From: an uncultured archaeon
GTDB taxonomy: Archaea > Micrarchaeota > Micrarchaeia > Anstonellales > Bilamarchaeaceae
Direction: 5' to 3'
Assembly (NCBI GenBank): GCA_963734525.1
Contig: CAVTHI010000008.1
Coordinates: 216,450-280,449, forward strand
Length of the DNA stretch: 64,000 nt
In this document: piece after piece, positions 20,567 to 39,903 of the stretch
How positions within the stretch are numbered: position 1 is the stretch's first letter
Layout of the letters: every line of letters begins with the position of its first letter
Notes under the pieces: model-generated
What the model was told of the DNA's origin: nothing
The model's input: only the letters and a program-made list of their open reading frames with translations
Databases searched by the model: none
Position numbers and translations under genes: made by a program

Positions 20567-21807
20567 TGGGGAGGTTCAACACGCTGATGGCGGCAAGCTC
20601 CGCGCTGAGGATGTATCCCGCCACGTCGGGCGCGCTCGGACGGGAGCAGACGCAGAGGAGGAACACGATAACGCGCGAGGCGCAGGCAATCGCCGAAGCG
20701 GAAACTCCGCAGGCGCGCGCCGCGGCCGAGCGCCAGCTGACGACGACGCTTGCGACATACGTGTCGCGCGACATCACCGCGGTCGCAGGGGCGGTGCCCG
20801 GCGAGGCGAGGACCGCGCTCGATGCAATCGCCGCGCCGCTGGCGCAGCCAGGGACTGCGACGACCGCACAGGTCCAGGCCGGCATGCAGGCGCTTGCCGC
20901 GGTCGCCCGGCTCGGCGACGCGATATCGCCGTCGCACCGGATGGACCAGGACACGAGGAACGGCGTAATCGCGATTTACGCCCGGGCGCTCACGGCGCTT
21001 CCCCAGGCCGGGGGCATGGAAGCGTTCAACACGCAGATTGCGCTGGCGGGAAGGTATGCCGAAAGCCCAGCGCAACGGGCCGAGATTGCGCGCGTTTCGG
21101 AAAGGGCCGCTCAGGGCGGCGAGGGGCTCCAGCTCGCGCAGAGATACCTCGAGGCGGACAGGCAGGTGAACACGGTCCGCGAGCAGCGCAGGGGATTGCC
21201 CGCCGGAAGCGAGGCGGCAAGGGCGCTCGACATCATCGTCACGAACCTGGAAACGTACCGGACGAAAATCGCGGCCGGGCAGGACATCGCGACCGAACAG
21301 CAGATAACGGACTGGACCGCGAGAATCAGGCGGGACAAGGATACGGACCCGGCCATCGCTAGGCAGGTCGAACGCAGGAGGGCCGCCATATTGGCCGAGA
21401 ACCCCACGATGGATCCCGCGGCCGCCGAGGCCCAGGCGATATCGTCGATGGGACGCGAGATGGCGAATGCGTCCGAGCAGAGCAGGATAACAACGCTCCT
21501 CGAAGCGGGCGAACAGATGATGCGGGCGCTCCAGACGCCGCACCTGGCCGGCAGCCTCAAGAACGACCTGGGCAGGATTTTCAGGCTCGCCATCGACGCC
21601 ATCTCCCAGGGCAATGCGCAGGACGGGGCCACGTACAGGGACGCGGCCACGGCTTACCTGTCGCTGCGCGGAAGCCGCAACGCGAGGGACCGCGCGGACA
21701 TAATGCAGATTGTCCGCGCGAGCCGAACAAGCCACGCCTGCGGCGGGGCAGGGCAGGTTCACGGACGTGCAAATCCGCTCCCTCCAGGTTTACCGCCAGT
21801 TCGGTGA
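20521..21807 (+). CDS. Giant-locus segment 2 (helical)
   Basis: Only a GTG start. The frame is already open and reads sensibly upstream (…LREPASRIYSAALT|VLDTPPTAQENADAIMGRF). The tail …SHACGGAGQVHGRANPLPPGLPPVR looks out of frame. Confidence 0.65.
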   Translation: MLDTPPTAQENADAIMGRFNTLMAASSALRMYPATSGALGREQTQRRNTITREAQAIAEAETPQARAAAERQLTTTLATYVSRDITAVAGAVPGEARTALDAIAAPLAQPGTATTAQVQAGMQALAAVARLGDAISPSHRMDQDTRNGVIAIYARALTALPQAGGMEAFNTQIALAGRYAESPAQRAEIARVSERAAQGGEGLQLAQRYLEADRQVNTVREQRRGLPAGSEAARALDIIVTNLETYRTKIAAGQDIATEQQITDWTARIRRDKDTDPAIARQVERRRAAILAENPTMDPAAAEAQAISSMGREMANASEQSRITTLLEAGEQMMRALQTPHLAGSLKNDLGRIFRLAIDAISQGNAQDGATYRDAATAYLSLRGSRNARDRADIMQIVRASRTSHACGGAGQVHGRANPLPPGLPPVR

Positions 21808-23341: not shown

Positions 23342-24700
23342 GGGACAACAACATCACGCAGGCGACAGCCCTTATAAACCGCATGATAGACCTGCTTCCC
23401 GAGGGCAGGAAGGCGGAGTTCAGGTCGAGGATTGCCGCCGCCAATCAAAGGAATGAAGGCGAATCGGAAAGCGCGTTCCGGCTCAGGCAAAATGGCATCC
23501 TCCAATCAACGTATGCGGAACTGGGCAATCTCACAGGCACGCGGACGACGAACGAGCAGGGCAACTTGATTTATGATACGGTCGGAAATTATGCGGATTA
23601 TCGTGTCGTTTCGGGGATGTTCTGGTCCGAGCGGTTCGATGCCGCAGGCTCTGCGATGAACGGCGCTGCCGCAACCATCGGCATCCAGTCGAATCGCGCC
23701 GGCATGTGGGTCACGAACCGCGTATTCGCGATTCAAAGGGAGGCGGCCGCTGAACGGACAGGCTTCCCTCCGGGGATGAATGCTATTGCTTCTGCGCTGT
23801 TATCGCCAGAAGGATTGGGGCTGGCCGGCGGAAGGACAGTGACCCCCCCGACTGACGCGACGCTCAATGAGATAATAAGCCACCTTCCGGCGGATAAGCG
23901 CGCCGATTACCAGGCGCGGCTTGCCAGGATAAGGGAGGCGGAGGGCCGCGCGGGAGCCGCAAGGCCCGGCACCCCAGATGCCATCACAAGGGACATTTTC
24001 ATGGAGGGCGGAGGCAGGCAGGGCCTCCTCGAATCCCTTGCGAGCGAACGGATTAGGACGCCGGCTGGAAGGGACGTGAACCTGCTCACAACCATCGCCA
24101 GCCGCAGCCCCCTATACTTCGATGCGGAAGGATATGACAGGAGGTTCGTCTCGGCGCAGGCGGCCGTGGACAGGGGCAATGTCGCCGAAGGGAACAGGAT
24201 TCTTCTCGGGCTGACCGGCGGGCGCCAGCGCGACGGGACCGAGGTCGTCGGTGACATCGAAATCGGCCAGGGAATGGAATCGAGCGATATCAGGCGCTTC
24301 ACGCTTAGGGCCTCGGCATGGACCCAGGAGAGGGCCAGGTCCGGCGTCCGCGGGGAATTCATGGAGGGCGCGCCGCCAGGCACGGAAGAGACGCGCGCAA
24401 GGCAGATGAGGGAGGACCGGAATCTGGCAATCGTCCCGGTTCTCGAAGCCCTGGAAGGCAGCATGGGAAGAAGCGTTTCCGAGCTGAATGCGGCGGCGAC
24501 TGCGAACGAGAGGGCGAGGGACGAAATCGGAACGACAAGGACTGTGCTGAGGGTCAACGATTCACTCGTAGCAAACCTCTGGGCCATGCTTCCGAGGGAT
24601 GCCGCCTCCAGGTACGACGCCCGCATTGACGAGATGAACGCGGGGGGGACGTCTCCGACAAGGCGCAATGAAATCGCGCGCGAGCTTTACGCCGAGATGC
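22618..24700 (+). repeat. Six dispersed copies of a helical 'LP' motif (hh..hLPxxxRAx[YF]xxRh) spanning the segment 3/4 junction
   Basis: Copies near 22621, 22727, 22828, 23381, 23868 and 24569. Examples: MIDLLPEGRKAEFRSRI, IISHLPADKRADYQARL, LWAMLPRDAASRYDARI. Confidence 0.6.
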
Positions 24701-27700
24701 GCACGCATCCGGAGGAGTTCCGGCAGGCGAGGGAAGACCTGCTAACTCACAGCGGCACATATTTCACCCCATACCGGGCCCAGCTCGAGGCGGATGGAGA
24801 GACTACGTATGCCGAAGGCAGGCACCAGCAGCGCAGCGTCGGCTGGACGTATGCGAGGCTGCAGTTAACGTCGATGCAGGACGATTTGAGGATGGGTGAC
24901 CAGGCCCAGACCTACAGGGAGGGGAGAAGCGCCCAGACACAGCACGCAAGGGACGCTCTCGACCGGGCGAAAGGAAGGCCGGGCAGGATGTACCTCATCT
25001 CGGACGCGCACAGGGAACACGCGGCGAGGAGGGCCGAGGCCGCGCTTGCCATGCTCCATGAGGACAACGACTACCGCGCGCAGGACATACTCCGCAGCAA
25101 CGAGACATTGACCGCGCCAGTATACGAGTTCCACGGCCCGAGCCGCGACTGGAATTATGCGCGGGTGGGGACGGATGTCAACATCTACAGCGATAGGAGC
25201 GGCAGCGGAAGGCGCATCGGAGGCCGCCAGATAAACCCGATTGACGAGATGGACACGCTCAACCGCGCCGAGAACATGGAGCTCACGAGCTATACCGACA
25301 GCGACCTGTTCTATGATTCCAGGGCGCGCGTCCGGCCGCAATTTGAAACGATAGGCCGGAACCAGACGGACCTGCAGCTTGGGCTCCTCGGGTTCCGCAG
25401 GGTCCCTCTTCTCAACGATCCTGACGGATACACCCACCGCATCGTATCATGGACGCCTGCATCCGAAGCGGAGTACGCGAGGGTTAATGACGCCTACACG
25501 CAGTTCATGCGCCTTCGCGGGCAGATGCAGTCATCGGTTTTCCAGCACGATTCGCCATGGGGCGACGACCCGCAACTCCGGTTCCTTGAGCGGACCGCAG
25601 AGCGCACTTCGAACGCGGCTTTGTCGGTATACGAACTCCAGCCATACCGAATGGATGAAAGGCCCACCGGCACGAACGCTGAAAGGCTGGCGGCATCCCA
25701 AAGCAGGCTGAGGGACAGCGGATTGTTCGTCCAGGAGGGGAACCAATATGTCGACAGGGATTTTGCGACAAGGGATGCGCTATCTAGCATGACGAACTAC
25801 CGCAGCGGCTACAACGTCGTCTGCGGAGTCGGCGAGTTCGCGGTCGCAACCGCAGGCGTCGTCTTCGCGCCGGTCACCGGAGGGGCGTCCCTCGCACTCA
25901 CGGTCGGCGTCGGCGCAATGGGCGTGCACCGCGGATTAGTCATGAGGGAGCAGGCCGGCGAGTGGACCGGCATGGCGACGTTCACTACGGTCATGGGCGG
26001 AATCGGGATGGTCCTGCCTGTTGCCGGCGAACTCGCAGGAGGGGGCAGGCTGCTTGCAGGCGGCGCTGAGCTGGCAAGCGAACTCTCTGCAGGAAGCAGG
26101 ATTGGAACCGCGGCGACGGAAACCGCAGTCGCATTGACAAGGAGCCAGAGGGCCCTCCAGTGGGCTGTGGGCGTCGGCAACGAGGCGAACTGGGCGCAGA
26201 GATATGTCGGGCGCACTGTGCTCGGCGCGTATGAATTGAACCTGGCACAGCGCGGCGTGCACGTGATGGGAACCGGCATGATGGCCGGCGGCTTCGCTCA
26301 GTTCGGCTACCAGCTCCCGCAGATGATAGAGGGCGTGCGCCGTGGCGACATGGCCTGGTTCGAGGCGGCCTTCGGCGGCTTCCAGGCGATCGTCCAGCCC
26401 ATGGCGCAGGCGGGCTTCGTGCAGTTCCGCGTGGGGCAGGCGGCAAGGGGAGGCGGCATTCCAGCTTACAGGCCCGCGTGGCAGCAGGGAGTCGAGGCGG
26501 TTTTCCTCGGCCACCCGCTGACGCTGGGGCAGGAGCACGCGCAGTCTCTTGCTTATCACAACGCGCGGATAGAATTCAATGCCCTCCCGCAGACGGTGAG
26601 GGAATCTTACGTTTCATTCAGGGACAGCACGGGAATACGGCTGCCGCCGGACGTCGAGGTTCGCGTCCTGCGGGAGTACCGCGCGGCGAACGAGCAGGGG
26701 ACCGCGAGGAACTTCCAGGAATTCGCGTCAGGTTCCAGGGATGTGCAGGTCGCGCGGCTCGAAGCGGTCCGCGACGCGATTGTCGAGGGGAGGGTGAGGC
26801 TGTCCGAACTGCCCCGCGACCAGCAGGAATATATCCGGACGAGGCAGGCCGGCGGCAGCGAAGCCGCCGCGCTGACCGCCCGCGACCTGGCCATCGCAGA
26901 ATCCAGGGCGCCTGCGCCAAGGACGCCTGAGACGGTCGCGGAGCAGAGCAGGGCGACCCTTGAGCGGCTCGACCGCGCCGCGGAGATGCGCGACCGGAGG
27001 GACGCCGCGGCCGCCGCAGTCCAGCTGAGGCAGGAGAGGACGGATTTGAGCGGCTCGTTCGATGCGGCTTTCACCGGGAGGAGCTCGGACGGGACGACGA
27101 CCACTTACACGCTCGGCAGGGGCGAATCCGCAATCACGTTCGGGGAGCAGCACGTCTCGCTCGCGACCGACCTCGCATTCAACGCGCAGAGGATTGTGCG
27201 GAGGCCGGAAGGCCAGACGATGGAGCGCGCGGCCGCTGAAGCGCGGACGAGAATCCGCGCCCAGCTTGAGCCGGAGGTCCGCGCGAACAGGATGAGCGTG
27301 GCTGACGCCGAGCGGATTACCGGCGAAAGGATGAGCCGCGTCGAGCAGATGGCCCGCGACCCGGAGTTCGTCCGCGCCACGCCGCGCGACGGGGCGGCGA
27401 ACAGGGGCGAACAGCTGCGCCTCGGGCTCGAGAGCGCGGGATTCCTGCCAGAAATCGCTCCAGGCCGGATGTCATCAGGGCGAGGAACTCGGTCGAAGTC
27501 CTCAGGATTCTTAACAGCAGGGAGCTCACGCCGAACGACCTTGAGGTTTTCGCTTTCAGGAGGCAGCAGCAGTCCGAGGAAGCGGAGACGAGCGCGCTGG
27601 GCATGGAGACTCGCGCCGCAAGGTTGCGCGAGAGCAACCCCCAATCGCGCGAGGCTACAGCGCTCGACGCGAGCGCGCAGAGGCTCCGCGCGGAAGCGGC

Positions 27701-28182
27701 GGGGCTGGAAAACAGCGCGAACACGTTACTATCTGAGGCTGCGGGAAGAAGGACCGTTGCCAGGGCCGGGGAGCTCAGGACGAGGGCTGAGCGCCTCGAA
27801 TACCGCGCCCTGCTCGACCAAGGCCAGGCAGAGGCGCTCCGCGGAAGGGCCGCGGGATTGCGCGCGGAAGCCGAGAGGATGTCGCCGCAGCCCGCGAGGC
27901 GGGAAGGCAGGATGTCGGCGCGCGCTCCGGACGTTCCGGAGGTGCTTGCGAATGTCAGCCCCGAAAGGTATGCGGCATCGGCGCTCAGGAACAGGGCGCT
28001 TGACCTGGAGCAGGCGGCAGCGGCGAACGAGGCGCGCGCTTCGAGGATGGGCCCCGAGGACAGGCAGGCTACGGCAGGGATTGCCGCCGGTTTCCGCGAG
28101 GCCGCAAGGGCCATGCGCACGCAGGCGGAGCAGTTCGAATCCGGAAGCGTCACGGTCACACCCGAAGGAGTCCAGGCGCTGA
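23317..28182 (+). CDS. Giant-locus segment 4: LP-motif repeats, globular region, Gly-zipper hydrophobic core. Genuine coding in this frame probably ends ~27460
   Basis: TTG start only. Sensible sequence runs to …LGLESAGFLPEIAPG, followed by ~240 codons of Arg/Ser/Gly junk. Hydrophobic GVGEFAVATAGVVFAPVTGGASLALTVGVGAMGV / TTVMGGIGMVLPVAGELAGGG at 25806-26070. Confidence 0.7.
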   Translation: MHPQGHLLRDNNITQATALINRMIDLLPEGRKAEFRSRIAAANQRNEGESESAFRLRQNGILQSTYAELGNLTGTRTTNEQGNLIYDTVGNYADYRVVSGMFWSERFDAAGSAMNGAAATIGIQSNRAGMWVTNRVFAIQREAAAERTGFPPGMNAIASALLSPEGLGLAGGRTVTPPTDATLNEIISHLPADKRADYQARLARIREAEGRAGAARPGTPDAITRDIFMEGGGRQGLLESLASERIRTPAGRDVNLLTTIASRSPLYFDAEGYDRRFVSAQAAVDRGNVAEGNRILLGLTGGRQRDGTEVVGDIEIGQGMESSDIRRFTLRASAWTQERARSGVRGEFMEGAPPGTEETRARQMREDRNLAIVPVLEALEGSMGRSVSELNAAATANERARDEIGTTRTVLRVNDSLVANLWAMLPRDAASRYDARIDEMNAGGTSPTRRNEIARELYAEMRTHPEEFRQAREDLLTHSGTYFTPYRAQLEADGETTYAEGRHQQRSVGWTYARLQLTSMQDDLRMGDQAQTYREGRSAQTQHARDALDRAKGRPGRMYLISDAHREHAARRAEAALAMLHEDNDYRAQDILRSNETLTAPVYEFHGPSRDWNYARVGTDVNIYSDRSGSGRRIGGRQINPIDEMDTLNRAENMELTSYTDSDLFYDSRARVRPQFETIGRNQTDLQLGLLGFRRVPLLNDPDGYTHRIVSWTPASEAEYARVNDAYTQFMRLRGQMQSSVFQHDSPWGDDPQLRFLERTAERTSNAALSVYELQPYRMDERPTGTNAERLAASQSRLRDSGLFVQEGNQYVDRDFATRDALSSMTNYRSGYNVVCGVGEFAVATAGVVFAPVTGGASLALTVGVGAMGVHRGLVMREQAGEWTGMATFTTVMGGIGMVLPVAGELAGGGRLLAGGAELASELSAGSRIGTAATETAVALTRSQRALQWAVGVGNEANWAQRYVGRTVLGAYELNLAQRGVHVMGTGMMAGGFAQFGYQLPQMIEGVRRGDMAWFEAAFGGFQAIVQPMAQAGFVQFRVGQAARGGGIPAYRPAWQQGVEAVFLGHPLTLGQEHAQSLAYHNARIEFNALPQTVRESYVSFRDSTGIRLPPDVEVRVLREYRAANEQGTARNFQEFASGSRDVQVARLEAVRDAIVEGRVRLSELPRDQQEYIRTRQAGGSEAAALTARDLAIAESRAPAPRTPETVAEQSRATLERLDRAAEMRDRRDAAAAAVQLRQERTDLSGSFDAAFTGRSSDGTTTTYTLGRGESAITFGEQHVSLATDLAFNAQRIVRRPEGQTMERAAAEARTRIRAQLEPEVRANRMSVADAERITGERMSRVEQMARDPEFVRATPRDGAANRGEQLRLGLESAGFLPEIAPGRMSSGRGTRSKSSGFLTAGSSRRTTLRFSLSGGSSSPRKRRRARWAWRLAPQGCARATPNRARLQRSTRARRGSARKRRGWKTARTRYYLRLREEGPLPGPGSSGRGLSASNTAPCSTKARQRRSAEGPRDCARKPRGCRRSPRGGKAGCRRALRTFRRCLRMSAPKGMRHRRSGTGRLTWSRRQRRTRRALRGWAPRTGRLRQGLPPVSARPQGPCARRRSSSNPEASRSHPKESRR

Positions 28183-31100
28183 GAAGCAGGGCCGGCGAAT
28201 TGCGCGCCGAGGCGCAGCAGCTGCGCACGCGGAGGGATGCGGACATCCAGCGCGCCGCCGCCCTTGAGCGCAGCGGAAGGGGCGAGGAGGCCCAGGCAAT
28301 CAGGAGGGGCGCGGCGAGAACCGGGGCTGAAATCTCATCCCGCGAAAACGAAGCCGTGTTCCTCACGCGCGAAGCGTCGAACCTGGAAACGATACTCAGG
28401 GCGAGAAGCGGCGAGGCCACAAGGCCCGCCGCGGCGCCATCGCGCAGGACGCGCGCGGCCGAGGGCGTGGACGAATCTTCGCCGGCGAGATTCATCTCCG
28501 ACGATGCGATAGGGACGAGGATAATAGAGCGCGCCCTCGCCCCGAGGGACAACCCGTCCCAGCAGCAGGAGTGGTTCGTAGGCGGCGAGCGCATGACGGT
28601 AGGAAACAACACCGAGGTCGTGACTACCCGCAGGGTGCTTCAGACCGTCGACACGTGGGTGCGCGGCATGGCGCGCGCTGGACAGGAAAGCGACATCATC
28701 GTGCTGAGCGGCGACAAGCGCCTGCTGAACAACATCAACAACGCGCTCGGGCGCCCAATCGGGGACCGGGCCCTATCCGCCTACCGCGAGGTCCTGCGCC
28801 GCGCGGTGAACGGGGCCGCGGGCGAAGGAACGCCGTTCCTGCTCCGCCCGTCGCAGAGCGGGGATGAAGTGCTTGCGGTCATAGTGGTTCCGAGAGGCCG
28901 CGGACAGGCGGTGCGCGAGGCGCTCGCCGCGGGAGTCAGGAGGGCCGAGGCGGACGTGCTCCAGGAAAGGCTGAATCCGGAGCATCCTGAAAGCCTCGCC
29001 GCCGCATCGAGGATGGTTAGGGACCCGAGAGGCCTCGTTTCCGCCGCTGTTGAGATTGGCGATGTCGTCCAGGTGCGGAGGGGCCAAGGCGGGGAGGTCA
29101 CTGCCACCGGCGTGCGCCAGGATGGAAGCACTTACAACGCGGAGGTCGCGAGGACCGACGCGCAGGGAAGGGAGACGCGCGAAATCGCCGGCCCGGCGCT
29201 CAGCCGCGCCGACGACCCGAGATGGGGGCCGGACCTCAGAAGGAGGCTCGGCGTTCGGGAGCAGATGGACATCACGCTCGGCCTCGAGCCGCTGGAAACC
29301 GCGCGCGTAAGGGACGCGCTGTCAAGGCAGCGGAGCGGCCAGGTGCTAAGGCCCGAGGAGCAACGCGTCGTCGCGGAAGTCCAAAGGCGCGTCGGGGAGG
29401 GCGCATCCGAGGATGCCGCCGTGTTCGCTACGGCCCAGGCGCGGGCGACCGTGTCCCCGACGGAAAGGGTGAGCGGACTCACATTCGAAGTAAGGCTCGA
29501 GGTCACGGACCCGGCCACGCTCGCGCGGATGCGTGCGCTCCTGCCCGAAAGCAACAAGGGGCTGGCCGAACTCGCATCGAACAGGTTCGGCATCAGGGGC
29601 CTCAACACATTCCTCGGCCACCAGGGCTCGAACGGGATAGTGACGTCAGTCGAGCACGCCGTCGGCGATTTCGCATCGTCGCCCTATGCGAGGCAGCGGG
29701 GAATCCGCGTGCGGCGCCTGGGCACCATGAAGTATATAATAGAAGGGGGCAACGCGGCCGACATGCGCATGATGCGCAGGATGATAGACCGCCAGCTCAG
29801 CTCGGACCACGCGCAGATGCGCATGAGCAGGACGACGCACCACGCCCAGCTTACGGACGTGACCGGCGAAACTGCCCTCGCCCACGCGCAGAACGGGCAT
29901 CTTTCGGTAGACCGGAGGCAGGACCCGTCGCGCAGGACGGACTGGGACGGGGAAACCAGGCTCTATGAGATGGCCAACTCGATTCTCTCGAACATATCAG
30001 TCCGCGACGAGGCGTCGCTTGCGAGGATGCTCGGGCCCGAGGGCTACAGGCTTCTCCGCGACAGCGGAGTCCTCGACATGGTACGGGGCAATGCGGAGGC
30101 GGGATTCGGAAGATACGCGAACGGCCCGATAAGGAATTTCGAGGATTTCGTCCGCGCCCTGCGCCAGGAAGTCGGCGGGGAGCGCGGAAGGACTATGGAG
30201 AGCGCGTTCAGGAGGTTCATCATCGAGAACGAGCCGGTGCTGAGCCGTAGGTTCGCGACCGAGAGGACGGAATTGTCCGCACCCGAAGTCTCTGGCCGCA
30301 TTGCGACCAGGAGGCAGGAAATCGGCCGGGTTTATGAAAGGCGCACGGGAACGCTCACCCCGTCCGAACAGCAGACCGTGACGAGGGTCGACGAGCTCGT
30401 CCGCACGCGCGGGATGACCGCCGAGCGGGCGATGGATTATGTCGCAGACGAGCAGGTGAGGCCGCACGCAGTCAACGCCGATGCGACGCATATCGAAGGG
30501 GAGCAGCGCACCTTCACCGCGATGGCGCCCGAATTCCAGGACACGCGCGTCGTGCAGGGGGACGGGAGCACGGTCAGGCTCGGGGACGCGCCGAGGGGAA
30601 GGCTGATAGGCCGCCTCGACGACACGTTCGAGACGTCAGGCTCTTCCGCAGGCGTTTTCCGCGGCGAGGTGCTGGTGAACGGACAGCCGGCCGAAGTGGC
30701 GATTAAATTATACAGGGATCCGCCCGGTGCGACGCACGACCAGCCGGCCACGCCCGCGAGATGGAGGCGGATGATAAGGTATGCGCAGGAAGAGGTGAAT
30801 TCCCTGCGCACGCTTTCTGAAATCAGGGTGAACCTGCCCGACGAGCACGGCGTCATGCGCGAGGTCCCGCTCGGACCGGCGGTGATAGGGTTCGTGCAGG
30901 TCGACGGCAACCCCGCGATAGCGATGGAGCGCGTGCAAGGCCGCGCGATCGACGAATTGACGCCGAGCGAGATAAGGAGGTTCGTCACGCCGAGGACCTA
31001 CGAGCAGCTGCGCACCATGTGGGATGCATTGCACCGCGCGGGATACGACATCGGCGATTTCCAGTTCGCGGTCCTCACGTCCGACCAGCGCGTCAACGGC

Positions 31101-34100
31101 GTGCAGAGAAGGGCCGGCGAGATAGTGTTCTGGGATGCCGGCGGCCTGGCGCCGCTCGCGAGGAACATGAGTCCGAAATCCGCGGATTACCAGGTGAACT
31201 TCCATGAGAGGGTCGCCGAGGCAATCCTGATATCCGATTATATGTGGCGCGAGGGACCTGACGGCGAGCAAATTCCGCGGAGGCCGCAGGCGGAGTTCAC
31301 TGCGCTTGACACGGCGCTCCGCGGCGCTCTTGGCGTGCCGGCAGACCGCCAGGTGACGACTGCCGACCTCCTCACCCAGTTCCGCGATATGGGCCAGAGC
31401 GGACCGCAGGGAACGGATGTGGGATTCTCGGCCGCGCAGCGCAGGCAGGCGGTGGCGGATTATCTTTCGCGCATGCCGGACCGCGCAGAAGCGGCGAGGC
31501 TCGAAACTACGCTCAGGGATATCGAGGCGGGTTCGGGAATGGCATTCCTTCCGCCGAGGGCGGAAGCCGCGGCCGCGCAGAGGCGCGCCGCGACAGCGGG
31601 AGCGCCGGCGGAGAGGGGGGATACGACCACGCCGATGCCGCCCCGCGAGCCGACGCAGCCCCCGCGCGAGCCATCACAAAGGCCGCGCGAACCGTCGCAG
31701 AGGCCGCGCGAGCCTTCGCAACAGCAGCGCGAGCCCACTCCGGAAGAAAGGGCCGACACCGAGCCGTCGCCGCCGCAGGCGAGGCCGCCTTCGAGGCCCA
31801 ATGAGTCCGCCCAGCTGCGCCCTGTTGAAGATGTGACGGGAGTGCCGAGGCAGGCGTTCGACGACATCCGCGCAGGCATGGCCATTCCGGACATCATCGA
31901 CAGGCTTTCGCAGGGCAACGCTACCGCGGCGAGAAGGCTTGAGAATGCCGTCGGGCCAATGCTTAGGGACCCGGTATTCAGCGAAAGATTCAGGCTCGCC
32001 TCGGATACTGAGAAAGCGATGATTGTCGAATCGCTGGCAAGGGGAAGGGCGCCAGCGGATGCATTCATGGATTTGGGCGCACTGACCGCACCCAGGACCG
32101 CGCAGGAATTCGAATCGCTCACGGCGAGGCTCGCGGCGCTTCCGGCCCAGGAGAGAAACCTGCGGCTCACCGAAATCAGGGCGGCGAACTCCCTGCTTGC
32201 GGACGCGGTCGGAATCGCCGCCGCAGAACCGTCGCCGCAAAGGAGGGCCCGCCTCGCGACCGAGTTCGAGACAGCGATGGGAGAGCGCGGGCGCATCGCC
32301 GAAGTCGAACGGGCAAGGGGCGCGCGCACGCCCGCCGAGCTCCGGGACCAGGAGGAAGCGCTGATACGCCGCACGGCAACGGACAGGGGATTGGATGCCG
32401 AGGCGGCCGTCAGGAATTACGGGGCCGGAGGGACGGAAGGCAGGCTCAATGCCATAGCGGGCCTGGGCGCCGATGTGACGCGCGTCCGCGCGCAGTTCCA
32501 GCGCGAGCAGGACAGGATAGGGCGCATGGCCGACGGACCTGCGAAGGACCATGCCCAGCAGCGCCTGGACCGGGCCGGGGAGGATTTGTTCGCGCTTTAC
32601 ACGAGAGGGAACCTCCAGGGCAGCATAAGCGGCCTTCCGGGTTTCGAGGGGGCGACGGTCGCCAGCATATCATTCCTTCCGGGGATGAGGGGCGTCTATG
32701 AGGTCCGCATGTCGAACAACCGGCGCGTCTTCATAAAGATGGAGGACGTTTCGGCCGCGGGCTTGGGCCGCGATTTGGCGGCTACGCGCGGATTGTACAC
32801 TTCCGAAATCCATGGCGGGTTCTCTTACGAGACAGGGCTCAGTTACCGCAACGGGACGCCGGTCCGGCAGGAGTACGGAATCATCGAGGACATCCATGAT
32901 GCGGCCGGCCGCAACATCCGCATCCGGCTCCCGTCAGGGCCTGCCGAGGATGTCCGCGTGGTGGGCGTCTCGATGCTGAGGCACGAGGTGCTCGAGGTCC
33001 CGCGGCCGCCGGCCGCAGGTGCATCGCCTGCGGAAGTGCAGGCGTACCAGCAGCGCCTCGCGAGGTTCACGTCCGACCCGGTCATCCGGGAATTCTACAG
33101 GCTTTCCGGGACGCCGCAGGGGCGCGAGACGCTCATGCAGGCGTGGAACGCATACCATGAATTGTCGAGGCGCTCGCTTCTCGGGGACAGGTACGCGCGC
33201 AACACCGCGGCAGTCCTCGTCGAGAGGGCGAACGGCGAGCGCGTCCTCACGTTCCAGCCGATAGACATGGATGCCGTGGGGTGGAGGGTATTGTCCAATC
33301 CGGATGGCACGCCCAATTTCATGTTCTTCAACAGGGACTTCGCGGACGCCAGCACGGATTTCGTCCAGAGGGCGTCGAGCGCGAGCCTGGCCGCTGAAAG
33401 CATCGGCCTCCTTCCCGCAGGGGTTCCGGCATATGCATTTGGCGACGCGATGTTCAGCCAGCGCGCGCAGAGGCCGCTTCCCCCGGAGATACCTCCGCAA
33501 AGGCAGGCAGGGCGCGACATCATCGCCCGCCATGACGGCCAGCCTTTCGGCGCAGGCTATGACACGACAAGCGGCGAGTACAGCCCGGTCGGAGGCACTG
33601 CCGTCCACGGTGGAAGGACGAGGTTCATCGAGCGGGCCGACGGGCGCATGAGGATGTACGCGGACGAGATGAACCCGCTGATGGAAGCCAACCTTTCGCC
33701 GCAGGCGAGGGCGGACTACGCGCGCGAGCAGCAGGAACGCATGCGCAGCGTGCGGAGAAGGCCTGGCGGAGGAGGTGGAGGCCCGCCGCCGCTTCCGGCG
33801 GCAAGACAGTCGTCAGGCCCGGTCGTCGAGATTACGGACGGGCAGATAATACGCGAGCCTTCGGCCCCGGCACCGAGGCCGAGCGGAAGAGCGCCGTCGC
33901 AGCGTCCTGAGCGGACGATGGAGGTTTCCGATTCCGATATAGTCCATGACGCTCCGGCGGTTCCGCCGGAGCAGCCCCCAGCTCCTTCGCAAAGGCGCGG
34001 CCCGCCTCCGCTTCCGACGCAGCGCGATGCGACGATGAATGTTTCCGATTCAGAATTGATTATCGAACCGCCGGCGGCACCGGCAAGGCGCGGGCCGCCT

Positions 34101-35528
34101 CCGCTCCCTCCCGCCGAGCCGGCCCAGGCGCCGTCGCGCAGGGGACCCCCGCCTCTCCCGCCAGAGCAGGCGCAGCAGCCGCGGCGCGGGCCGCCGCCGC
34201 TTCCAGCCAGAGGGGAGCGCACACAGCCGCTTACAGAGGCGGACATGATTCCGGTCCAGCCCCCAGGGCGCACGCCTCCGCCCCCGCCACCATCGGCGCA
34301 GGCAAGGAGGGCGCCCGCAGGGCCGCAGCCCCAGGTGAATCCCGTCGACCTCGTCCAGCCGGCTAACCTTGCAACGTTCGCCAACAGGCTCGCGGCCAAC
34401 GATGCCGCGGCGGTGCGCGACCTGGCAGCCATGCCGCCGCAGGTGCGCGACACGGTAAACGCCCTCATGCTGAGGATGGGCGGAGCGCCGAGAAGCCCCC
34501 AGGAGCAGGCGACGCTCGCCCGCGAATTCTCCGGAAGGGTGCTTGCGACGCGGCTGATTGCGGACCCGGAAACGCTGTGGAGGTTCGCCTCCACCTTCAG
34601 GTTCGGCGAGACCGCATCGGGCGTCACGCCCGAACAGACCGCCATGCTCAATTCGCTCCCCCCCTCCGTCCGCGGGACCGTGCTTGAATTCGCCGGGAGG
34701 CTGAGGAACGAATGGAGCGCGAGGGATGCGCTCGAACCCGGATACACCGAAAGGATAACCAGGCAGATAGATGTCGAAACCGTGCGGGACTTGTACGTCT
34801 CGCACAGGGCAGGAACCAGAATCACCGACCCGGCCGACCGCATGGCTGTCGAGTATGTCACCGCAGGCGGGAGGACTCCCGACCCCGCGACGCGCGAAGG
34901 CGCAAGGCTGATTGAGGCCGCCGCGGTCATGCGCAACGCCGCGAGGAGGCTTGTGGAAGCATCGGGCGGGTCTGCGGACGCGCTCGCAGCGGCGCGGGTA
35001 AATGCCGAAACCGTCAGGACAGGCCAGAGGCCGAATGATTTCAACAGGGCTTTGGCATACGACTTCATCAATGATTTGGCGCAGGCCAGCGCGGCTGCCG
35101 CCGGACGCGGAGTGCCCACAGCAGAGGATTACCTGTATGCAACAGTGACGCATGCATATTTCACGAGGGCCGGGAGCGCCGACACGGCGAGAATCTCCGG
35201 CACCCATTATTTCCCCGGAAGCGACGCAATCGAACAGCATGTCACCGCGACGCTGGAATGGGGCGGGCAGAGTTTCAATATCCGGATTTTCCGGGACAGG
35301 GTGAATTTCGGGGATGTGGAACCGGCGAGGGCAGTCGGCGAGCCGAGCTGGCCGTCATGGCAGATGAGGGACGCGTTCCTGAGATACGCACAGCGCACGC
35401 TGCGCGGGCCCGCTCGAAGAGGCGGTGCGCCCGGTCATGCGCGCGATACCGAGGGAAGCGGGGCAGGATGCCAGGGCGTGGGCCGCCGCGACGCGCGCGA
35501 ATCCGACCGGCGACATCCAGATACCTAG
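27603..35528 (+). CDS. Giant-locus segment 5 (2641 codons): coiled coil, two GGDEF-like modules, ePK-like fold, PI3K/PI4K-like module, Pro-rich arrays
   Basis: The frame is open and sensible upstream of ATG 27603 from ~27460 (RPDVIRARNSVEVLRILNSRELTPNDLEVFAFRRQQQ…). The tail after …AFLRYAQRTLRG looks out of frame. Motifs are listed under findings. Confidence 0.75.
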   Translation: METRAARLRESNPQSREATALDASAQRLRAEAAGLENSANTLLSEAAGRRTVARAGELRTRAERLEYRALLDQGQAEALRGRAAGLRAEAERMSPQPARREGRMSARAPDVPEVLANVSPERYAASALRNRALDLEQAAAANEARASRMGPEDRQATAGIAAGFREAARAMRTQAEQFESGSVTVTPEGVQALRSRAGELRAEAQQLRTRRDADIQRAAALERSGRGEEAQAIRRGAARTGAEISSRENEAVFLTREASNLETILRARSGEATRPAAAPSRRTRAAEGVDESSPARFISDDAIGTRIIERALAPRDNPSQQQEWFVGGERMTVGNNTEVVTTRRVLQTVDTWVRGMARAGQESDIIVLSGDKRLLNNINNALGRPIGDRALSAYREVLRRAVNGAAGEGTPFLLRPSQSGDEVLAVIVVPRGRGQAVREALAAGVRRAEADVLQERLNPEHPESLAAASRMVRDPRGLVSAAVEIGDVVQVRRGQGGEVTATGVRQDGSTYNAEVARTDAQGRETREIAGPALSRADDPRWGPDLRRRLGVREQMDITLGLEPLETARVRDALSRQRSGQVLRPEEQRVVAEVQRRVGEGASEDAAVFATAQARATVSPTERVSGLTFEVRLEVTDPATLARMRALLPESNKGLAELASNRFGIRGLNTFLGHQGSNGIVTSVEHAVGDFASSPYARQRGIRVRRLGTMKYIIEGGNAADMRMMRRMIDRQLSSDHAQMRMSRTTHHAQLTDVTGETALAHAQNGHLSVDRRQDPSRRTDWDGETRLYEMANSILSNISVRDEASLARMLGPEGYRLLRDSGVLDMVRGNAEAGFGRYANGPIRNFEDFVRALRQEVGGERGRTMESAFRRFIIENEPVLSRRFATERTELSAPEVSGRIATRRQEIGRVYERRTGTLTPSEQQTVTRVDELVRTRGMTAERAMDYVADEQVRPHAVNADATHIEGEQRTFTAMAPEFQDTRVVQGDGSTVRLGDAPRGRLIGRLDDTFETSGSSAGVFRGEVLVNGQPAEVAIKLYRDPPGATHDQPATPARWRRMIRYAQEEVNSLRTLSEIRVNLPDEHGVMREVPLGPAVIGFVQVDGNPAIAMERVQGRAIDELTPSEIRRFVTPRTYEQLRTMWDALHRAGYDIGDFQFAVLTSDQRVNGVQRRAGEIVFWDAGGLAPLARNMSPKSADYQVNFHERVAEAILISDYMWREGPDGEQIPRRPQAEFTALDTALRGALGVPADRQVTTADLLTQFRDMGQSGPQGTDVGFSAAQRRQAVADYLSRMPDRAEAARLETTLRDIEAGSGMAFLPPRAEAAAAQRRAATAGAPAERGDTTTPMPPREPTQPPREPSQRPREPSQRPREPSQQQREPTPEERADTEPSPPQARPPSRPNESAQLRPVEDVTGVPRQAFDDIRAGMAIPDIIDRLSQGNATAARRLENAVGPMLRDPVFSERFRLASDTEKAMIVESLARGRAPADAFMDLGALTAPRTAQEFESLTARLAALPAQERNLRLTEIRAANSLLADAVGIAAAEPSPQRRARLATEFETAMGERGRIAEVERARGARTPAELRDQEEALIRRTATDRGLDAEAAVRNYGAGGTEGRLNAIAGLGADVTRVRAQFQREQDRIGRMADGPAKDHAQQRLDRAGEDLFALYTRGNLQGSISGLPGFEGATVASISFLPGMRGVYEVRMSNNRRVFIKMEDVSAAGLGRDLAATRGLYTSEIHGGFSYETGLSYRNGTPVRQEYGIIEDIHDAAGRNIRIRLPSGPAEDVRVVGVSMLRHEVLEVPRPPAAGASPAEVQAYQQRLARFTSDPVIREFYRLSGTPQGRETLMQAWNAYHELSRRSLLGDRYARNTAAVLVERANGERVLTFQPIDMDAVGWRVLSNPDGTPNFMFFNRDFADASTDFVQRASSASLAAESIGLLPAGVPAYAFGDAMFSQRAQRPLPPEIPPQRQAGRDIIARHDGQPFGAGYDTTSGEYSPVGGTAVHGGRTRFIERADGRMRMYADEMNPLMEANLSPQARADYAREQQERMRSVRRRPGGGGGGPPPLPAARQSSGPVVEITDGQIIREPSAPAPRPSGRAPSQRPERTMEVSDSDIVHDAPAVPPEQPPAPSQRRGPPPLPTQRDATMNVSDSELIIEPPAAPARRGPPPLPPAEPAQAPSRRGPPPLPPEQAQQPRRGPPPLPARGERTQPLTEADMIPVQPPGRTPPPPPPSAQARRAPAGPQPQVNPVDLVQPANLATFANRLAANDAAAVRDLAAMPPQVRDTVNALMLRMGGAPRSPQEQATLAREFSGRVLATRLIADPETLWRFASTFRFGETASGVTPEQTAMLNSLPPSVRGTVLEFAGRLRNEWSARDALEPGYTERITRQIDVETVRDLYVSHRAGTRITDPADRMAVEYVTAGGRTPDPATREGARLIEAAAVMRNAARRLVEASGGSADALAAARVNAETVRTGQRPNDFNRALAYDFINDLAQASAAAAGRGVPTAEDYLYATVTHAYFTRAGSADTARISGTHYFPGSDAIEQHVTATLEWGGQSFNIRIFRDRVNFGDVEPARAVGEPSWPSWQMRDAFLRYAQRTLRGPARRGGAPGHARDTEGSGAGCQGVGRRDARESDRRHPDT
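31641..31742 (+). repeat. Tandem 7-aa/21-nt repeat PREPSQR (about 4.5 copies)
   Basis: PREPTQP PREPSQR PREPSQR PREPSQQQ REPTP, read directly from the sequence. Confidence 0.85.
33766..34335 (+). repeat. Proline-rich array: 5x GPPPLP cores (4 as RRGPPPLP) interleaved with acidic [VI](S/T)D(S/G)[DE/Q][IL][IV] motifs, ending in PPPPPP
   Basis: GGGGGPPPLP…VVEITDGQIIREP…MEVSDSDIVHDAP…QRRGPPPLP…MNVSDSELIIEPP…ARRGPPPLP…SRRGPPPLP…PRRGPPPLP…LTEADMIPVQPPGRTPPPPPPS. Confidence 0.85.
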
Positions 35529-38500
35529 GACGAGGCCAGGCCGCGCTCCCCCGGCGCAGACATCGATGACGCCTGAGGAGGTCGTCAGGGTTCATCTTAC
35601 CGCAGATACGGGCGGAAGGGCGGATGCTGCAGCCGCCCTGATGCGCATGCCCCCGCGCGACCGTGCACGGACCGTCGAATTGCTCCGTGAAAGGGCGCGC
35701 CCGCTTGAGGAACGCGCAGGAGCGATGGAGGCCGAGGCGAGGAGGCTTGAGGCACAGACCGCGCCGCAGGAAACGAACATCGTCCAGAGGCAGCAGGGCG
35801 CCGAGGCCGAAGCTACAAGGCTCTTCGAAGAGGGTCGCCAGCTCAGCACCCAGGCGCAGGCGGCCGAGGCGCGCGGGGATGCTCCCGAAGCCGCCCGGTT
35901 ACGGACCGAGCAGAACCGCATTGAAACGCAGGCTTACGAGAGGGATGCCGAAGGCAGGCGCCTCGCCATCGAGCTTAGCCGCGTCCGGGAGCCTGCCAAC
36001 AACCTGCGAAACGACGCAGCCGGACTGAGGACCCAGGCGCAATACTGGAACGAGCATGCGATGTTCTACCGCGAGCTGGGAAGCCTCAGCGGCGATGCGG
36101 GCACGAACATTTCCACGATGTTCATGATTCCGAGGGAAGAGCTTGCATCGATATACGCCCGTGCGCCCACATTATCCGAAGCGAGGCAGGCGATTTATGA
36201 CCGCCTCGGAATACGGCTCGGGGACCTTCCCCCGCTCGAAGTCAGGAGCGACGCGTATAAGAGCTTCAACTCGCTTGCGGACGACCCGTACATAGCGGGC
36301 ATGATGCTCACCGGGGACCTTTTCCGCAACATCGAGCAGATGGTGAGGCCGGACATGCTCGGCCTCCAGCCGGGCGACCGCGTGGTCGTGAGGGGCATAA
36401 GCTTCCAGAACGGCCTGGTCGGCGCATACCGCATCAGGCTCGAAGTCGTGGACAGCACGGGAAACCCGAGGACATTCACGGACCGGGGCGGGAATTCCAG
36501 GGACAGCATGACCGTCTTCGCGAAGAGGCAGGACCTGCGTCCCGATGCGGTCGGCTCGGAAGGAGGCTCGCTCACCGGGGCGCCATCGCCGCAGATTCGC
36601 GTGACCGGGCCGAACGGAAACCTTTCATACGTATCGCCCGAAGGGCATACAATCAACTACGGCATCATGCGCGACATACATGATTTCAGCGGGGAAGTGG
36701 CCGCGGGCGGGCACCGCCTGCAGGTCACGGTCGACGCCGCGGAAGACCTGTACAGCCTCGTGTTCAGGCAGGAGGGTGCGCGCGATGCTGGAAGGCAGCA
36801 ATTGTTCGCCGAACTGCGGGACAACCCGGACCAGTTCATCGAGGCGCTCGGCTATGCGCAGACCGGATTCGCCGCGGCCGGGTTCTATGACAGGCACGAG
36901 GCGAACGTCTGGGCGATGTGGCTCCGGATAGGTAACCAGCCGCCCGCGGAAGCCGCGCGCATGGCGCAAAGCCTCCGCGGCCAGGGCTACCGCGTCCGGG
37001 ACAACGGTGACGGCTCGTTCAGCTTCCTGCGCTTCGGCGCGATTGATTCGGATACGTTCGGTTCCTACCGCGCGACGGTCCGCGAGGACGACAGCATCTC
37101 GCTGCGCCCGATGGCCAACCAGTTGACGACGGACATGCACCGCGTTTTCGTTCATTTGACATATGAGATGAATACCGCGGAAATGACATTGGCGGCCTCG
37201 CAAGGAAGAAGGCCGCGCCTCCTCACAGTCGAGCAGGTCATTGAAAGGTCGTTCGGCGCGAACATGGACGGGCCGTGGATACGGGGCATGCGCAGATGGG
37301 CCACCGAGTTCAGCCCGACCACGGAGCAGGGCAGGAGATTCAATGATTCGATGAGGGGCCTGCTGAGCAACTACCACGGCCAGCGCAGCGGCATGGGATT
37401 CGCGATGGAAGGGGCCCAGCTCGGGAGGTTCGAGAGCGACGGCTACGTGCCGGTCCCCTCGGCCCTCAACGGCTCGCCGGTCACAATCGTGGACGGCATG
37501 GACGGAAGGGCGAGCTTCCTCGCTACCGGCAGGATTGCCACGAACCCGACAATCGGGGAATCCGCAAACAGGCGCATCATCGCGGCTATACCCGAAGGGC
37601 AGGACAGGTTCCTTATCAGGACTGATGATTTGCACAGGACGCAGCGGACTGCGCTGCGCGGCGCCCTCGGCTCTGCGGCAACAGAGTTCAGGACCGCAGG
37701 CGTCGGGGGGAGAACCTATCTCGTCATAAGCGACCCGGCGGCGATACCGCAGCAATACCTTGACAGGACGATATCGGTCAACAGGACCGGCGATGTCCTC
37801 TACTCGTACAACTATGGCTCCTTCATGACAATGTTCCCGGAGGGCAGGAGAATGTTTATGCTCCGCGTCGACAACCTGCCCCGGTCGGATGCCCGGGCGG
37901 CCGGCAGGATTCGCGGGGCACAGCCGCTTGAGCTCGGGATAACAGGCGAAAGAAGATATGTGATCGTAGAGAATCCGGACAGCATCCCGCAGGCCCTCAG
38001 GGACCGTGCCGTCGAAGTCGTGAGGCACGAAAACCGCCTGATGGGAGCCGAAGGGATGGCAACCAACATCGGGATACTGCATACGAGGACCATCGGCGCG
38101 GTCAGGATGTTCGACCACGTGATGGGCATGGGCGACGCCGGCTGGAGGAGCCTCTGGCAGGGCGTCCGCGACGGCTTGATGACTGCAGAGGGGAACGAGC
38201 GCGCCGCCGGCGGGCAGGACTTCCTCATGAGGAGGGTTCCCCAGCCGAATGTGCGGCAGGCGCTCCCGCCGGAGTATGGCGGCCCGGCAAGGACCGCGCC
38301 GCTTCCGCCTGATGCGAACCCGCCGGGCGGCGCGCCGCCCGTGGCGCCTCCGCCAGTTCCACCGCAGGCGGCACCTTCGCGGGGACCGGACGGAACGATA
38401 AGGGGAGTCACTCCGCCAGCGGATGCGCAGGCGCAAAGGCCGCCGTCCCAGCCGCCACCGCCGCCGGTTCCGCGGCAGTCTGCACCGCCTGAAGCGGTGC

Positions 38501-39903
38501 CGAGCGATGCGAGGCCTACCGCGGTGCGCCCGCCGGAACCGCTGCCATCGGATGCAAGGCAGACGCAGAGACGCGGGCCTGCAGAGCCGATTCCATCGCA
38601 AAGGAGGCCGGCAGAACAGGTGCCACCGATTCCTTCTGAAGCAAGGCCGACAACACGCCAGGCTCCGCCGCCCCCGGCACCAGACGTGACGCTAAGGCGG
38701 GAAGGGCCGGTTCCGCCGCAGGCCATTCCCACTGACGCGAGGCCCACGCAAAGAATGGAATTGGGCGGGGCAGCGGCATATCCAGGAATGGCAGCGCAGG
38801 GCCGGGGATTCGGGCATAACGGTCTGCCGGGACGCATTTATGCTCCTGAAGAAGTGATGAAGGCGGGAGGCATCGCGAATGCCGCAGCCGGACGGACGGT
38901 GGAGGGCATCAGCGCCGCGGACGGCCGCGTCGCAGCGGAGCTCGCATTGCAGACGCCGTTCGTGCAGGCAGGGGCGGATGCACGGATGCGGATGGCGCTC
39001 ATAGCGATGGACAACGCCTCGATTGTCCGCGGCGAAAGCTCGATTCCCGTAAGGCAAAGGAATCCGGTGCAGGGCTCGATGAACGCCGAGCTTTCCGCAG
39101 CAGTCACCCAGACGGACGCCGCCGGCATGAGATACCGGGATGTCAGCGCATTTTACGACCGCGAAACAGGGGCGATAACCGCAATCGGGGCAAGGGGGCA
39201 GGGAGAGCGGGTCACAATCAGGGTCAACATGGACGACGGGCGCATCTTCAGCGTCAGCGGCACGGGCGAGGTGCATCCGTCGGTCGCAGCGCTTAGGGGA
39301 CATCAGATAATCGAGCCCCCGGCGCCCATAAGCGGAGGGCCGAGGGGAGGCCCGAGCGGGGGCGGCCCGGGCAGCGTCCGTGAAACGGCCGCTTTGGCGC
39401 AACGGGTGATGGGGGCGGAGCCCGCCGCGATTGCCAGCCTTGCATCGGCTTCGCAGGAAACGCGCCTCGCCGTCGGATTCGAGATTGCGGGGAGGTTGGA
39501 ACTCACGGATGCGAGGCATCTTGCCGGATTCGCCCGCGACCTGGTGATGTATGACCTTCATCGGTCCGGGCGGCGCCCGATAACGAACCCTGCGGATTTG
39601 GCAAGGGTCACGGAAAGCGCGAGGCGCATCGAGCTTCTGCCGGAACCAATCAGGAGGGCGGTCAGGGCCGTAAGCTCGGATGCCGGTTTCGGGCTGAATT
39701 CATTGCAGGATGATACAAGATTCAACAGGTTCGTCGGTAACCGGAGGACCGGCGGCGCATTGATAGAGACCGCGCGCGGGGCCATCATGCGCGCCATGCC
39801 GGCCGGGGACGATGTCCAATTGAGGATGGCTGTTGGCGCCGAAGAGATGGGAATGCCCCGTGCGCCGGGACAGGAGGGAAGGCCGGGCGGGGCAGGGGCA
39901 TGA
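35425..39903 (+). CDS. Giant-locus segment 6 (1492 codons): coiled coil, second PI3K/PI4K-like module, tandem ~80-aa duplication, Pro-rich array, C-terminal domain
   Basis: GTG start. The frame opens at 35383 and reads …GPLEEAV|RPVMRAIPREAG. It ends in a clean ATGA overlap with the next gene (39900-39903). Confidence 0.75.
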   Translation: MRPVMRAIPREAGQDARAWAAATRANPTGDIQIPRTRPGRAPPAQTSMTPEEVVRVHLTADTGGRADAAAALMRMPPRDRARTVELLRERARPLEERAGAMEAEARRLEAQTAPQETNIVQRQQGAEAEATRLFEEGRQLSTQAQAAEARGDAPEAARLRTEQNRIETQAYERDAEGRRLAIELSRVREPANNLRNDAAGLRTQAQYWNEHAMFYRELGSLSGDAGTNISTMFMIPREELASIYARAPTLSEARQAIYDRLGIRLGDLPPLEVRSDAYKSFNSLADDPYIAGMMLTGDLFRNIEQMVRPDMLGLQPGDRVVVRGISFQNGLVGAYRIRLEVVDSTGNPRTFTDRGGNSRDSMTVFAKRQDLRPDAVGSEGGSLTGAPSPQIRVTGPNGNLSYVSPEGHTINYGIMRDIHDFSGEVAAGGHRLQVTVDAAEDLYSLVFRQEGARDAGRQQLFAELRDNPDQFIEALGYAQTGFAAAGFYDRHEANVWAMWLRIGNQPPAEAARMAQSLRGQGYRVRDNGDGSFSFLRFGAIDSDTFGSYRATVREDDSISLRPMANQLTTDMHRVFVHLTYEMNTAEMTLAASQGRRPRLLTVEQVIERSFGANMDGPWIRGMRRWATEFSPTTEQGRRFNDSMRGLLSNYHGQRSGMGFAMEGAQLGRFESDGYVPVPSALNGSPVTIVDGMDGRASFLATGRIATNPTIGESANRRIIAAIPEGQDRFLIRTDDLHRTQRTALRGALGSAATEFRTAGVGGRTYLVISDPAAIPQQYLDRTISVNRTGDVLYSYNYGSFMTMFPEGRRMFMLRVDNLPRSDARAAGRIRGAQPLELGITGERRYVIVENPDSIPQALRDRAVEVVRHENRLMGAEGMATNIGILHTRTIGAVRMFDHVMGMGDAGWRSLWQGVRDGLMTAEGNERAAGGQDFLMRRVPQPNVRQALPPEYGGPARTAPLPPDANPPGGAPPVAPPPVPPQAAPSRGPDGTIRGVTPPADAQAQRPPSQPPPPPVPRQSAPPEAVPSDARPTAVRPPEPLPSDARQTQRRGPAEPIPSQRRPAEQVPPIPSEARPTTRQAPPPPAPDVTLRREGPVPPQAIPTDARPTQRMELGGAAAYPGMAAQGRGFGHNGLPGRIYAPEEVMKAGGIANAAAGRTVEGISAADGRVAAELALQTPFVQAGADARMRMALIAMDNASIVRGESSIPVRQRNPVQGSMNAELSAAVTQTDAAGMRYRDVSAFYDRETGAITAIGARGQGERVTIRVNMDDGRIFSVSGTGEVHPSVAALRGHQIIEPPAPISGGPRGGPSGGGPGSVRETAALAQRVMGAEPAAIASLASASQETRLAVGFEIAGRLELTDARHLAGFARDLVMYDLHRSGRRPITNPADLARVTESARRIELLPEPIRRAVRAVSSDAGFGLNSLQDDTRFNRFVGNRRTGGALIETARGAIMRAMPAGDDVQLRMAVGAEEMGMPRAPGQEGRPGGAGA
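37591..38040 (+). repeat. Tandem duplication of a ~75-80-aa module inside segment 6
   Basis: PEGQDRFLIRTDDLHRTQRTALRGALGSAATEFRTAGVGGRTYLVISDPAAIPQQYLDRTISV versus PEGRRMFMLRVDNLPRSDARAAGRIRGAQPLELGITGERRYVIVENPDSIPQALRDRAVEV. Confidence 0.7.
38491..38750 (+). repeat. Five copies of [AEP]x[VLI]P(S/T)(D/E/Q)(A/R)R(P/Q)(T/A) within a wider Pro-rich tract (38230-38760)
   Basis: EAVPSDARPT, EPLPSDARQT, EPIPSQRRPA, PPIPSEARPT, QAIPTDARPT. Confidence 0.8.

Follow-up and report, generated by a model that had tools for sequence, protein, structure and literature searches.

A PI3K-like family of the protein-kinase-like superfamily, present as paralogous modules in giant proteins of Micrarchaeota

Kinases of the PI3K/PI4K/PIKK type are regarded as essentially eukaryotic, with scattered cases among bacterial effectors and viruses. 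Their catalytic domain (PF00454; examples are VPS34, p110γ, ATM, DNA-PKcs and mTOR) has a bilobal kinase fold with a lysine on strand β3, a helix running into a D-R-(H)-x-x-N catalytic loop, and a metal-binding Asp in an I-D segment around 20-25 residues after that loop. Here we describe two modules, A and B, that share these features and are encoded in a 64,000-nucleotide stretch of DNA from an uncultured Micrarchaeota archaeon (assembly GCA_963734525.1, contig CAVTHI010000008.1, positions 216,450-280,449). The whole stretch is referred to as the window, and all positions given are those of the window. The modules differ from the PI3K/PI4K/PIKK domains in several respects: they carry IDxD instead of IDFG, a GxxG loop and, in copies of the A type, a variable residue in place of the catalytic-loop His; a β-hairpin is added behind the hinge, and the C-terminal part holds a conserved Gly/Arg subdomain; and they are archaeal (DPANN), multi-copy, and embedded in proteins of 3,000-7,300 residues. 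Moreover, no PIK-helical (PF00613), C2, FAT or FATC domain accompanies them, and Pfam scans of the open reading frames (ORFs) spanning 23317-41357 at E≤1 returned no domain.

Two further groups of described proteins bear comparison. YopO of Yersinia, LegK7 of Legionella and HipT/HipA are likewise host-interacting or toxin proteins with modules of the protein-kinase-like (PKL) fold, and they are found among the weaker structural matches of modules A and B in Foldseek searches. However, they rank below the PI3K/PIKK domains, give no sequence matches to the modules, and are proteins of a few hundred residues with known secretion systems, whereas none was identified for the Micrarchaeota protein in this analysis. 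The second group is represented by the nanohaloarchaeal SPEARE proteins, which measure 8,880-9,409 residues and contain a Sec signal peptide, Ig-like and fibronectin-like domains and a VirB4-like ATPase (PMC10266531). In both cases single enormous genes are carried by the small genomes of DPANN symbionts, and a role in host interaction has been proposed for the SPEARE proteins (PMC10266531). In contrast to these, the Micrarchaeota protein has no Pfam-detectable domain in the ORFs scanned and no N-terminal signal, and instead combines an internal transmembrane hairpin, two PI3K-like modules and a third kinase-like region.

Modules A and B and the family to which they belong

Both modules are read in frame on the + strand. 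Module A, a PI3K-like PKL domain of around 403 residues, occupies 32553..33761 and corresponds to residues 1651-2053 of ORF 27603-35528 (2,641 codons), as supported by the family-profile envelope, the AlphaFold2 model and Foldseek. Module B, its PI3K-like paralogue, occupies 36268..37527, residues 282-701 of ORF 35425-39903 (1,492 codons), on the evidence of the family profile, hhalign, AlphaFold2 and Foldseek. The peptide stretches quoted in an initial annotation of this DNA are present in both, but the spans proposed there (32631-33330 for A, 36361-37065 for B) fall short of the domains, each of which extends over some 400 residues. The series of shared motifs that the annotation had listed (a β-strand Lys, a YGI(I/M) hinge, GDR(Y/H)xxN and ID.D) was recovered in both modules, where the order is G-loop, β3 Lys, hinge, D-R-x-x-x-N and I-D-x-D. 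In module A, the glycine loop GMRG (G44-M-R-G47, 32682-32693) forms the β1-β2 turn, and together with β3 Lys62 of VFIK (Lys codon at 32736) it makes up the N-lobe nucleotide-binding elements (32682..32738; strands 36-42, 48-53 and 58-62 in the model). The hinge reads YGIIEDIHD, the catalytic loop D212-R-Y-A-R-N217 (DRYARN, 33186..33203) directly follows a long helix (residues 188-207 in the model), and the metal-binding segment I-D238-M-D240, equivalent to the DFG of protein kinases (33261..33272), comes after strands 218-224 and 230-236. The corresponding elements of module B are GLVG (36412-36423), the Lys of VFAK (36523-36525), the hinge YGIMRDIHD, the catalytic loop DRHEAN (36889..36906) and IDSD (37042..37053); this module carries additional inserts, both in the β2-β3 loop and in the stretch that separates the catalytic loop from IDxD.

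The relationship between the two modules becomes visible through their wider family. In a direct BLASTP comparison only the N-terminal 128 residues align (27% identity, E 1e-3), and an all-against-all BLASTP of the window ORFs gave no matches. A word-indexed homologue search yielded a single relative for module A (P0001, E 8.6e-28) and none for module B. A HMMER scan with a profile built from A and P0001 led to 59 cluster representatives, which mostly measure 3,000-7,300 residues, and the iterated family profile finds module B at E 1.2e-67 over nearly its full length, pairing DRYARN with DRHEAN and IDMD with IDSD. A three-sequence MAFFT alignment of A, B and P0001 had misplaced the DRHEAN of module B, which the family profile sets properly. 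As a control for circularity, A-type-only and B-type-only alignments were made without the window sequences, and hhalign joined them with a probability of 99.8% and an E-value of 9.7e-28 over 324 columns. In addition, intermediate domains of the family are matched by both modules in plain BLASTP. Modules A and B are true paralogues by sequence comparison, and the mutual alignment on which the initial annotation had built its claim holds.

Family proteins contain one to three modules, and most giant homologues have one full A-type and one B-type copy; duplicate copies, which the annotation had considered unexpected, are present here, but duplication is the rule in the family and not a peculiarity of this locus. 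In archaeal contexts there are, in addition, stand-alone members of 380-860 residues. When one genome of each GTDB species was scanned, the module was found at 14 loci, and 14/14 belong to metagenome-assembled genomes (MAGs) of Candidatus Micrarchaeota/Micrarchaeia (DPANN). Literature searches retrieved no paper on this family or on giant Micrarchaeota proteins.

Conservation was assessed in 73 domain copies with mutual identities of 20-45%, numbered after module A. The catalytic-loop Asp (D212), the catalytic-loop Asn (N217) and the Asp of the I-D segment (D238) are each found in 73/73 copies. The β3 Lys (K62) is kept in 64/73, the Arg that follows the catalytic Asp (R213) in 66/73, the second Asp of IDxD (D240) in 69/73, and the glycines of the β1-β2 turn in 67/73 (G44) and 71/73 (G47). 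Thus, the Lys, Asp, Asn and second Asp that had been proposed as catalytic are invariant or near-invariant columns of the family, and in the models they lie at the positions expected of a kinase fold. The two types differ in the residue equivalent to the His of D-R-H: B-type copies read D-x-H-x-x-N in 15/15 cases, with Arg in 11/15 and Gly or Ala in the other four, while A-type copies have Y, F, H, R or A, the residue of module A being Tyr. Conservation extends to the small Gly/Arg-rich subdomain in the C-terminal part of the family C-lobe.

Fold, structural neighbours and competing readings

AlphaFold2 models of both modules were obtained with high confidence values, namely pLDDT 95.9 and pTM 0.93 for module A (from an alignment of 30 sequences) and pLDDT 85.8 and pTM 0.86 for module B (21 sequences). 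The order of elements is the same in the two models. Two helices precede β1, the glycine turn, β2 and a β3 strand that ends in the Lys; an αC-like helix, β4, β5, the hinge, an inserted β-hairpin and three helices come next, and the last of these helices runs straight into D-R-x-x-x-N; two short strands then lead to I-D-x-D, and the chain closes with a helical C-lobe followed by a small β/Gly-rich subdomain. From β1 to the helical C-lobe this is the canonical PKL order, in agreement with the conserved columns.

The structural neighbours of both models are headed by PI3K/PIKK kinases. With module A against the PDB, ranks 1-20 are all ATM, DNA-PKcs, ATR, VPS34 or mTOR (best E 2.6e-4, probability at most 0.98), and against BFVD the top three matches are PI3K or PI3/PI4-kinases of giant viruses (E 4e-4 to 2e-3). 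With module B against the PDB, p110γ/δ, DNA-PK and Mec1 take up all of ranks 1-38 (best E 1.3e-4, probability 0.99). Matches with E <1e-2 are nearly all kinases, without exception in the PDB and with three non-kinase viral proteins in BFVD. Of the features that characterize PF00454, the D-R-H-x-x-N loop is complete in module B (DRHEAN) and has Tyr in place of the His in module A (DRYARN), and the metal-binding I-D Asp and the N-lobe Lys are found in both, with the F-G of DFG replaced by x-D. The PI3/PI4-kinase-type fold that had been suggested from motifs alone is therefore supported, since PI3K/PIKK domains rank first for both modules, at the level of fold and motif only.

A number of observations weigh against a reading of the modules as active PI3K-like kinases. 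Pfam and NCBIfam return nothing on the modules, the giant-gene ORFs scanned and 30 family members; in particular, scans at E≤10 gave no PF00454 match for the modules and ORFs of the window (E≤1 for whole ORFs) or for the 30 members. Searches of PDB chain sequences, both with single sequences and with profiles, gave noise only. A profile from the alignment of 20 VPS34 orthologues, run with hhalign against both family alignments, gave no significant match (E 0.17 and probability 0.35% in one case, P 0.0087 and probability 4.6% in the other); in both runs the single local alignment sets the helix and DR[Y/H]xxN of the family on the helix and DRHLDN of VPS34. A profile-level match to the PI3/PI4-kinases, which the initial annotation had suggested looking for, was accordingly not obtained. 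The Foldseek E-values are only around 1e-4, with TM-scores of 0.2-0.3 and rmsd values of about 20 Å, which suggests that the long Foldseek alignments superpose poorly as rigid bodies, and YopO, LegK7, PAN3, HipT and, close behind the leaders, ordinary protein kinases come next in the lists with weaker scores. Furthermore, the family has no conserved acidic partner on αC, the His of D-R-H is not kept in A-type copies, the GxxG loop is closer to protein kinases than to class I/III PI3Ks, and the frame changes of the giant gene described below could make this copy a pseudogene.

Some of the same evidence would fit kinase-fold domains that have no special tie to PI3K/PI4K/PIKK and that represent a PKL branch in its own right, closer to eukaryotic-type protein kinases, HipA/HipT or APH-type enzymes, their motifs being generic for the superfamily. 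The missing profile link to PF00454 and VPS34 and the protein-kinase-like glycine loop are in keeping with such a branch, as is the presence of EphA2, Src, YopO, LegK7, PAN3 and HipT among the Foldseek matches, where some of them reach higher target-normalised TM-scores, around 0.3. Against it, three separate searches (module A in the PDB and in BFVD, module B in the PDB) put PI3K/PIKK first, in the PDB over ranks 1-20 and 1-38. In addition, the Arg is the residue immediately after the catalytic Asp, and the loop is entered directly from a long helix. This is the arrangement of PI3K/PI4K enzymes and not the H-R-D of protein kinases, in which the Arg precedes the Asp. The profiles of the candidate relatives are silent as well: at E≤10, the 30 family members match no kinase family of any kind in Pfam, including Pkinase (PF00069/PF07714), HipA_C and APH, and no DFG or APE motif is present. 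HipA/HipT is represented by a single weak structural match of module B in the PDB (8ezr_B, rank 43, E 6.6e-3), and the gene context of the modules is a giant multidomain gene. On balance, an independent branch of this kind appears unlikely.

A kinase-like fold may also serve another chemistry, such as AMPylation, glutamylation or another modification, as in SelO and SidJ, or may act as a non-catalytic pseudokinase scaffold. Atypical chemistry is known for PKL domains of effectors, the pseudokinases PAN3, ROP5 and JAK JH2 occur among the weaker Foldseek matches, and no function is assigned to the conserved Gly/Arg subdomain at the C-terminus. However, both types of paralogue retain the Lys, Asp, Asn and Asp in copies as divergent as those compared here, which speaks for catalysis of the usual sort, and the data give no sign of an inverted nucleotide site, so that we hold this alternative to be very improbable. 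Finally, motifs may coincide by chance in giant, low-complexity ORFs rich in Ala and Arg that contain no real domain. The marginal direct alignment of A with B and the biased composition of the surrounding protein could be read in this way, yet the conserved family of 59 representatives, the hhalign result, the confident AlphaFold2 models (pLDDT 86-96) and the stand-alone members refute a chance resemblance, to which we attach practically no weight.

Within the PKL superfamily the domains make up a separate family, and by sequence they cannot be assigned to PF00454. The explanation that we consider probable is that they are PI3K-like kinase modules whose nearest structural relatives are the PI3K/PI4K/PIKK catalytic domains, that they are paralogous within a Micrarchaeota protein of around 7,000 residues, and that both are probably active, since both paralogue types keep the full catalytic set.

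The giant gene and its surroundings

The two modules belong to one ancestral giant gene (19400..39903, + strand). In the window this gene is distributed over six ORFs in alternating frames (19400-20566, 20521-21807, 21710-23341, 23317-28182, 27603-35528 and 35425-39903), and tblastn with a homologue of 7,279 residues (P0002) showed that residues 1-6562 of the latter are colinear with 19409-38748 at 57-71% identity. Five frame switches occur near 20477, 21730, 23300, 27459 and 35409, with no in-frame stops and no long homopolymers at the switches, and at related Micrarchaeota loci the ORF stays unbroken over at least 5,801 (L002, the closest relative), 4,712 and 3,715 residues. The frame changes may represent assembly indels, a very recent pseudogene or a genuine splitting of the gene. 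Module A and module B had initially been placed in two separate "supermodules"; given the colinearity of all six ORFs with the single P0002 protein, and the intact relatives, these are instead pieces of one ancestral protein, and BLAST between the two ORFs detects no repeated supermodule outside the kinase domains and the proline-rich linkers.

A hydropathy scan (Kyte-Doolittle) identified a hydrophobic segment at 25813..25875 (+ strand; residues 833-853 of ORF 23317-28182) as part of a predicted transmembrane hairpin. One segment is detected in the window protein, and the corresponding position of P0002, P0004, P0005 and P0009 shows two, with around 50 residues between them. The hairpin is the only strong hydrophobic feature, located some 2,000 residues from the N-terminus and upstream of both modules, and by the same scan no hydrophobic N-terminus or signal is present in the giant protein or in the homologues examined. 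If the hairpin predicted by this crude scan is the sole anchor, both long arms, including the kinases, would lie on one side of the membrane, most simply in the cytoplasm because ATP is there.

A third kinase-like region, of another type, is encoded upstream of module A (30636..31145, + strand; residues 1012-1181 of ORF 27603-35528) and displays the motifs GSSAGV, VAIK, GDFQFAV and WDAG. It is conserved in eight giant homologues, has a weak Pfam match to RIO1 (E 0.14) and no sequence match in the PDB, and its GDFQFAV is devoid of the catalytic-loop Asn; the region may be an atypical kinase or else a pseudokinase. Between this region and module A, a 21-nucleotide tandem repeat (31637-31735, 4.7 copies) encodes the heptapeptide P-R-E-P-S/T-Q-x. 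Module A is followed by a proline-rich linker whose translation contains five GPPPLP motifs (33780..34205, + strand), a motif type that in eukaryotes is recognized by profilin, SH3 and EVH1 domains, and a proline-rich tract is also present after module B at approximately 38.2-39.0 kb, in ORF 35425-39903.

The flanks of the giant gene encode an archaeal LonB, an archaeal-type ProRS, a DUF373 protein and a DHH/GAN-like protein. LonB (83% identity), DUF373 (74%) and other genes are common to the window and one of the Micrarchaeota MAGs, and the RtcA (RNA 3'-phosphate cyclase) gene downstream of the giant gene (43829-44869) is similarly placed in five Micrarchaeota MAG loci. The G+C content rises to 66% in the region of the giant gene (19400-41400) as compared with 59% in the flanks. 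A horizontally acquired island was considered for this reason and rejected, as the closest relative shows the same excess (66.7% versus 57.6%), the composition of the giant protein (14% Ala, 12.8% Arg) fits, and the locus is syntenic. The absence of relatives in IMG/VR and INPHARED (GenBank phages) led to the rejection of a viral or mobile origin as well. From the shared genes and the 14 loci, the window is Micrarchaeota chromosomal DNA, in which the locus is conserved and not an island. Rfam and tRNA scans of the window found nothing.

Two ORFs next to the giant gene may be mentioned. The first (39900-41360, 486 codons) overlaps the preceding stop by ATGA and has neither a Pfam match nor a BLASTP match (E≤1e-5) in P0002-P0006, the five closest of the giant homologues; by eye, it contains an H...HD...D pattern (VIQHTEN...GILHDADPRRD) that looks HD-phosphohydrolase-like. 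The second (41197-41964) lies just after the giant gene and has a C-terminal HicA-toxin-like domain, and a similar HicA-like gene (L016 11028-11978) comes after a stand-alone family member, P0046, in another MAG.

Possible mechanism and significance

Judging from their conserved residues, both modules are most likely Mg-ATP phosphotransferases. Mg-ATP would bind between the two lobes, where the Lys would hold its phosphates and the metal ions would be held by the Asn together with the I-D Asp. The loop Asp would activate a substrate hydroxyl for phosphoryl transfer, with help from the His in B-type copies. The substrate could be a protein, a lipid or a small molecule, either of the symbiont or of its host. 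A bolder proposal is that a PI3K/PIKK lineage of DPANN archaea, residing in a giant membrane-anchored protein, phosphorylates proteins or inositol-type lipids of a Thermoplasmatales host at the cell-cell contact, or else that the family is a deep sister group with a bearing on the origin of the eukaryotic PI3K/PIKK enzymes. We regard this proposal as speculative and doubtful; if its first version is true, the protein would be the first "effector platform" with kinases in any archaeal symbiont.

The novelty lies in a PKL family of PI3K-like character whose lineage and architecture are both unexpected. A conserved, multi-copy DPANN family that is unmatched in the profile libraries and PDB chain sequences searched widens the known range of the fold and provides a new outgroup for kinase evolution, and the presence of two or three catalytic kinase-like domains makes an otherwise unannotated giant ORF testable. 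At around 20 kb, the gene represents a considerable outlay for the small, reduced genome of a DPANN archaeon, and it is syntenic across Micrarchaeota; it is therefore likely that the giant gene is central to the symbiotic lifestyle of these archaea.

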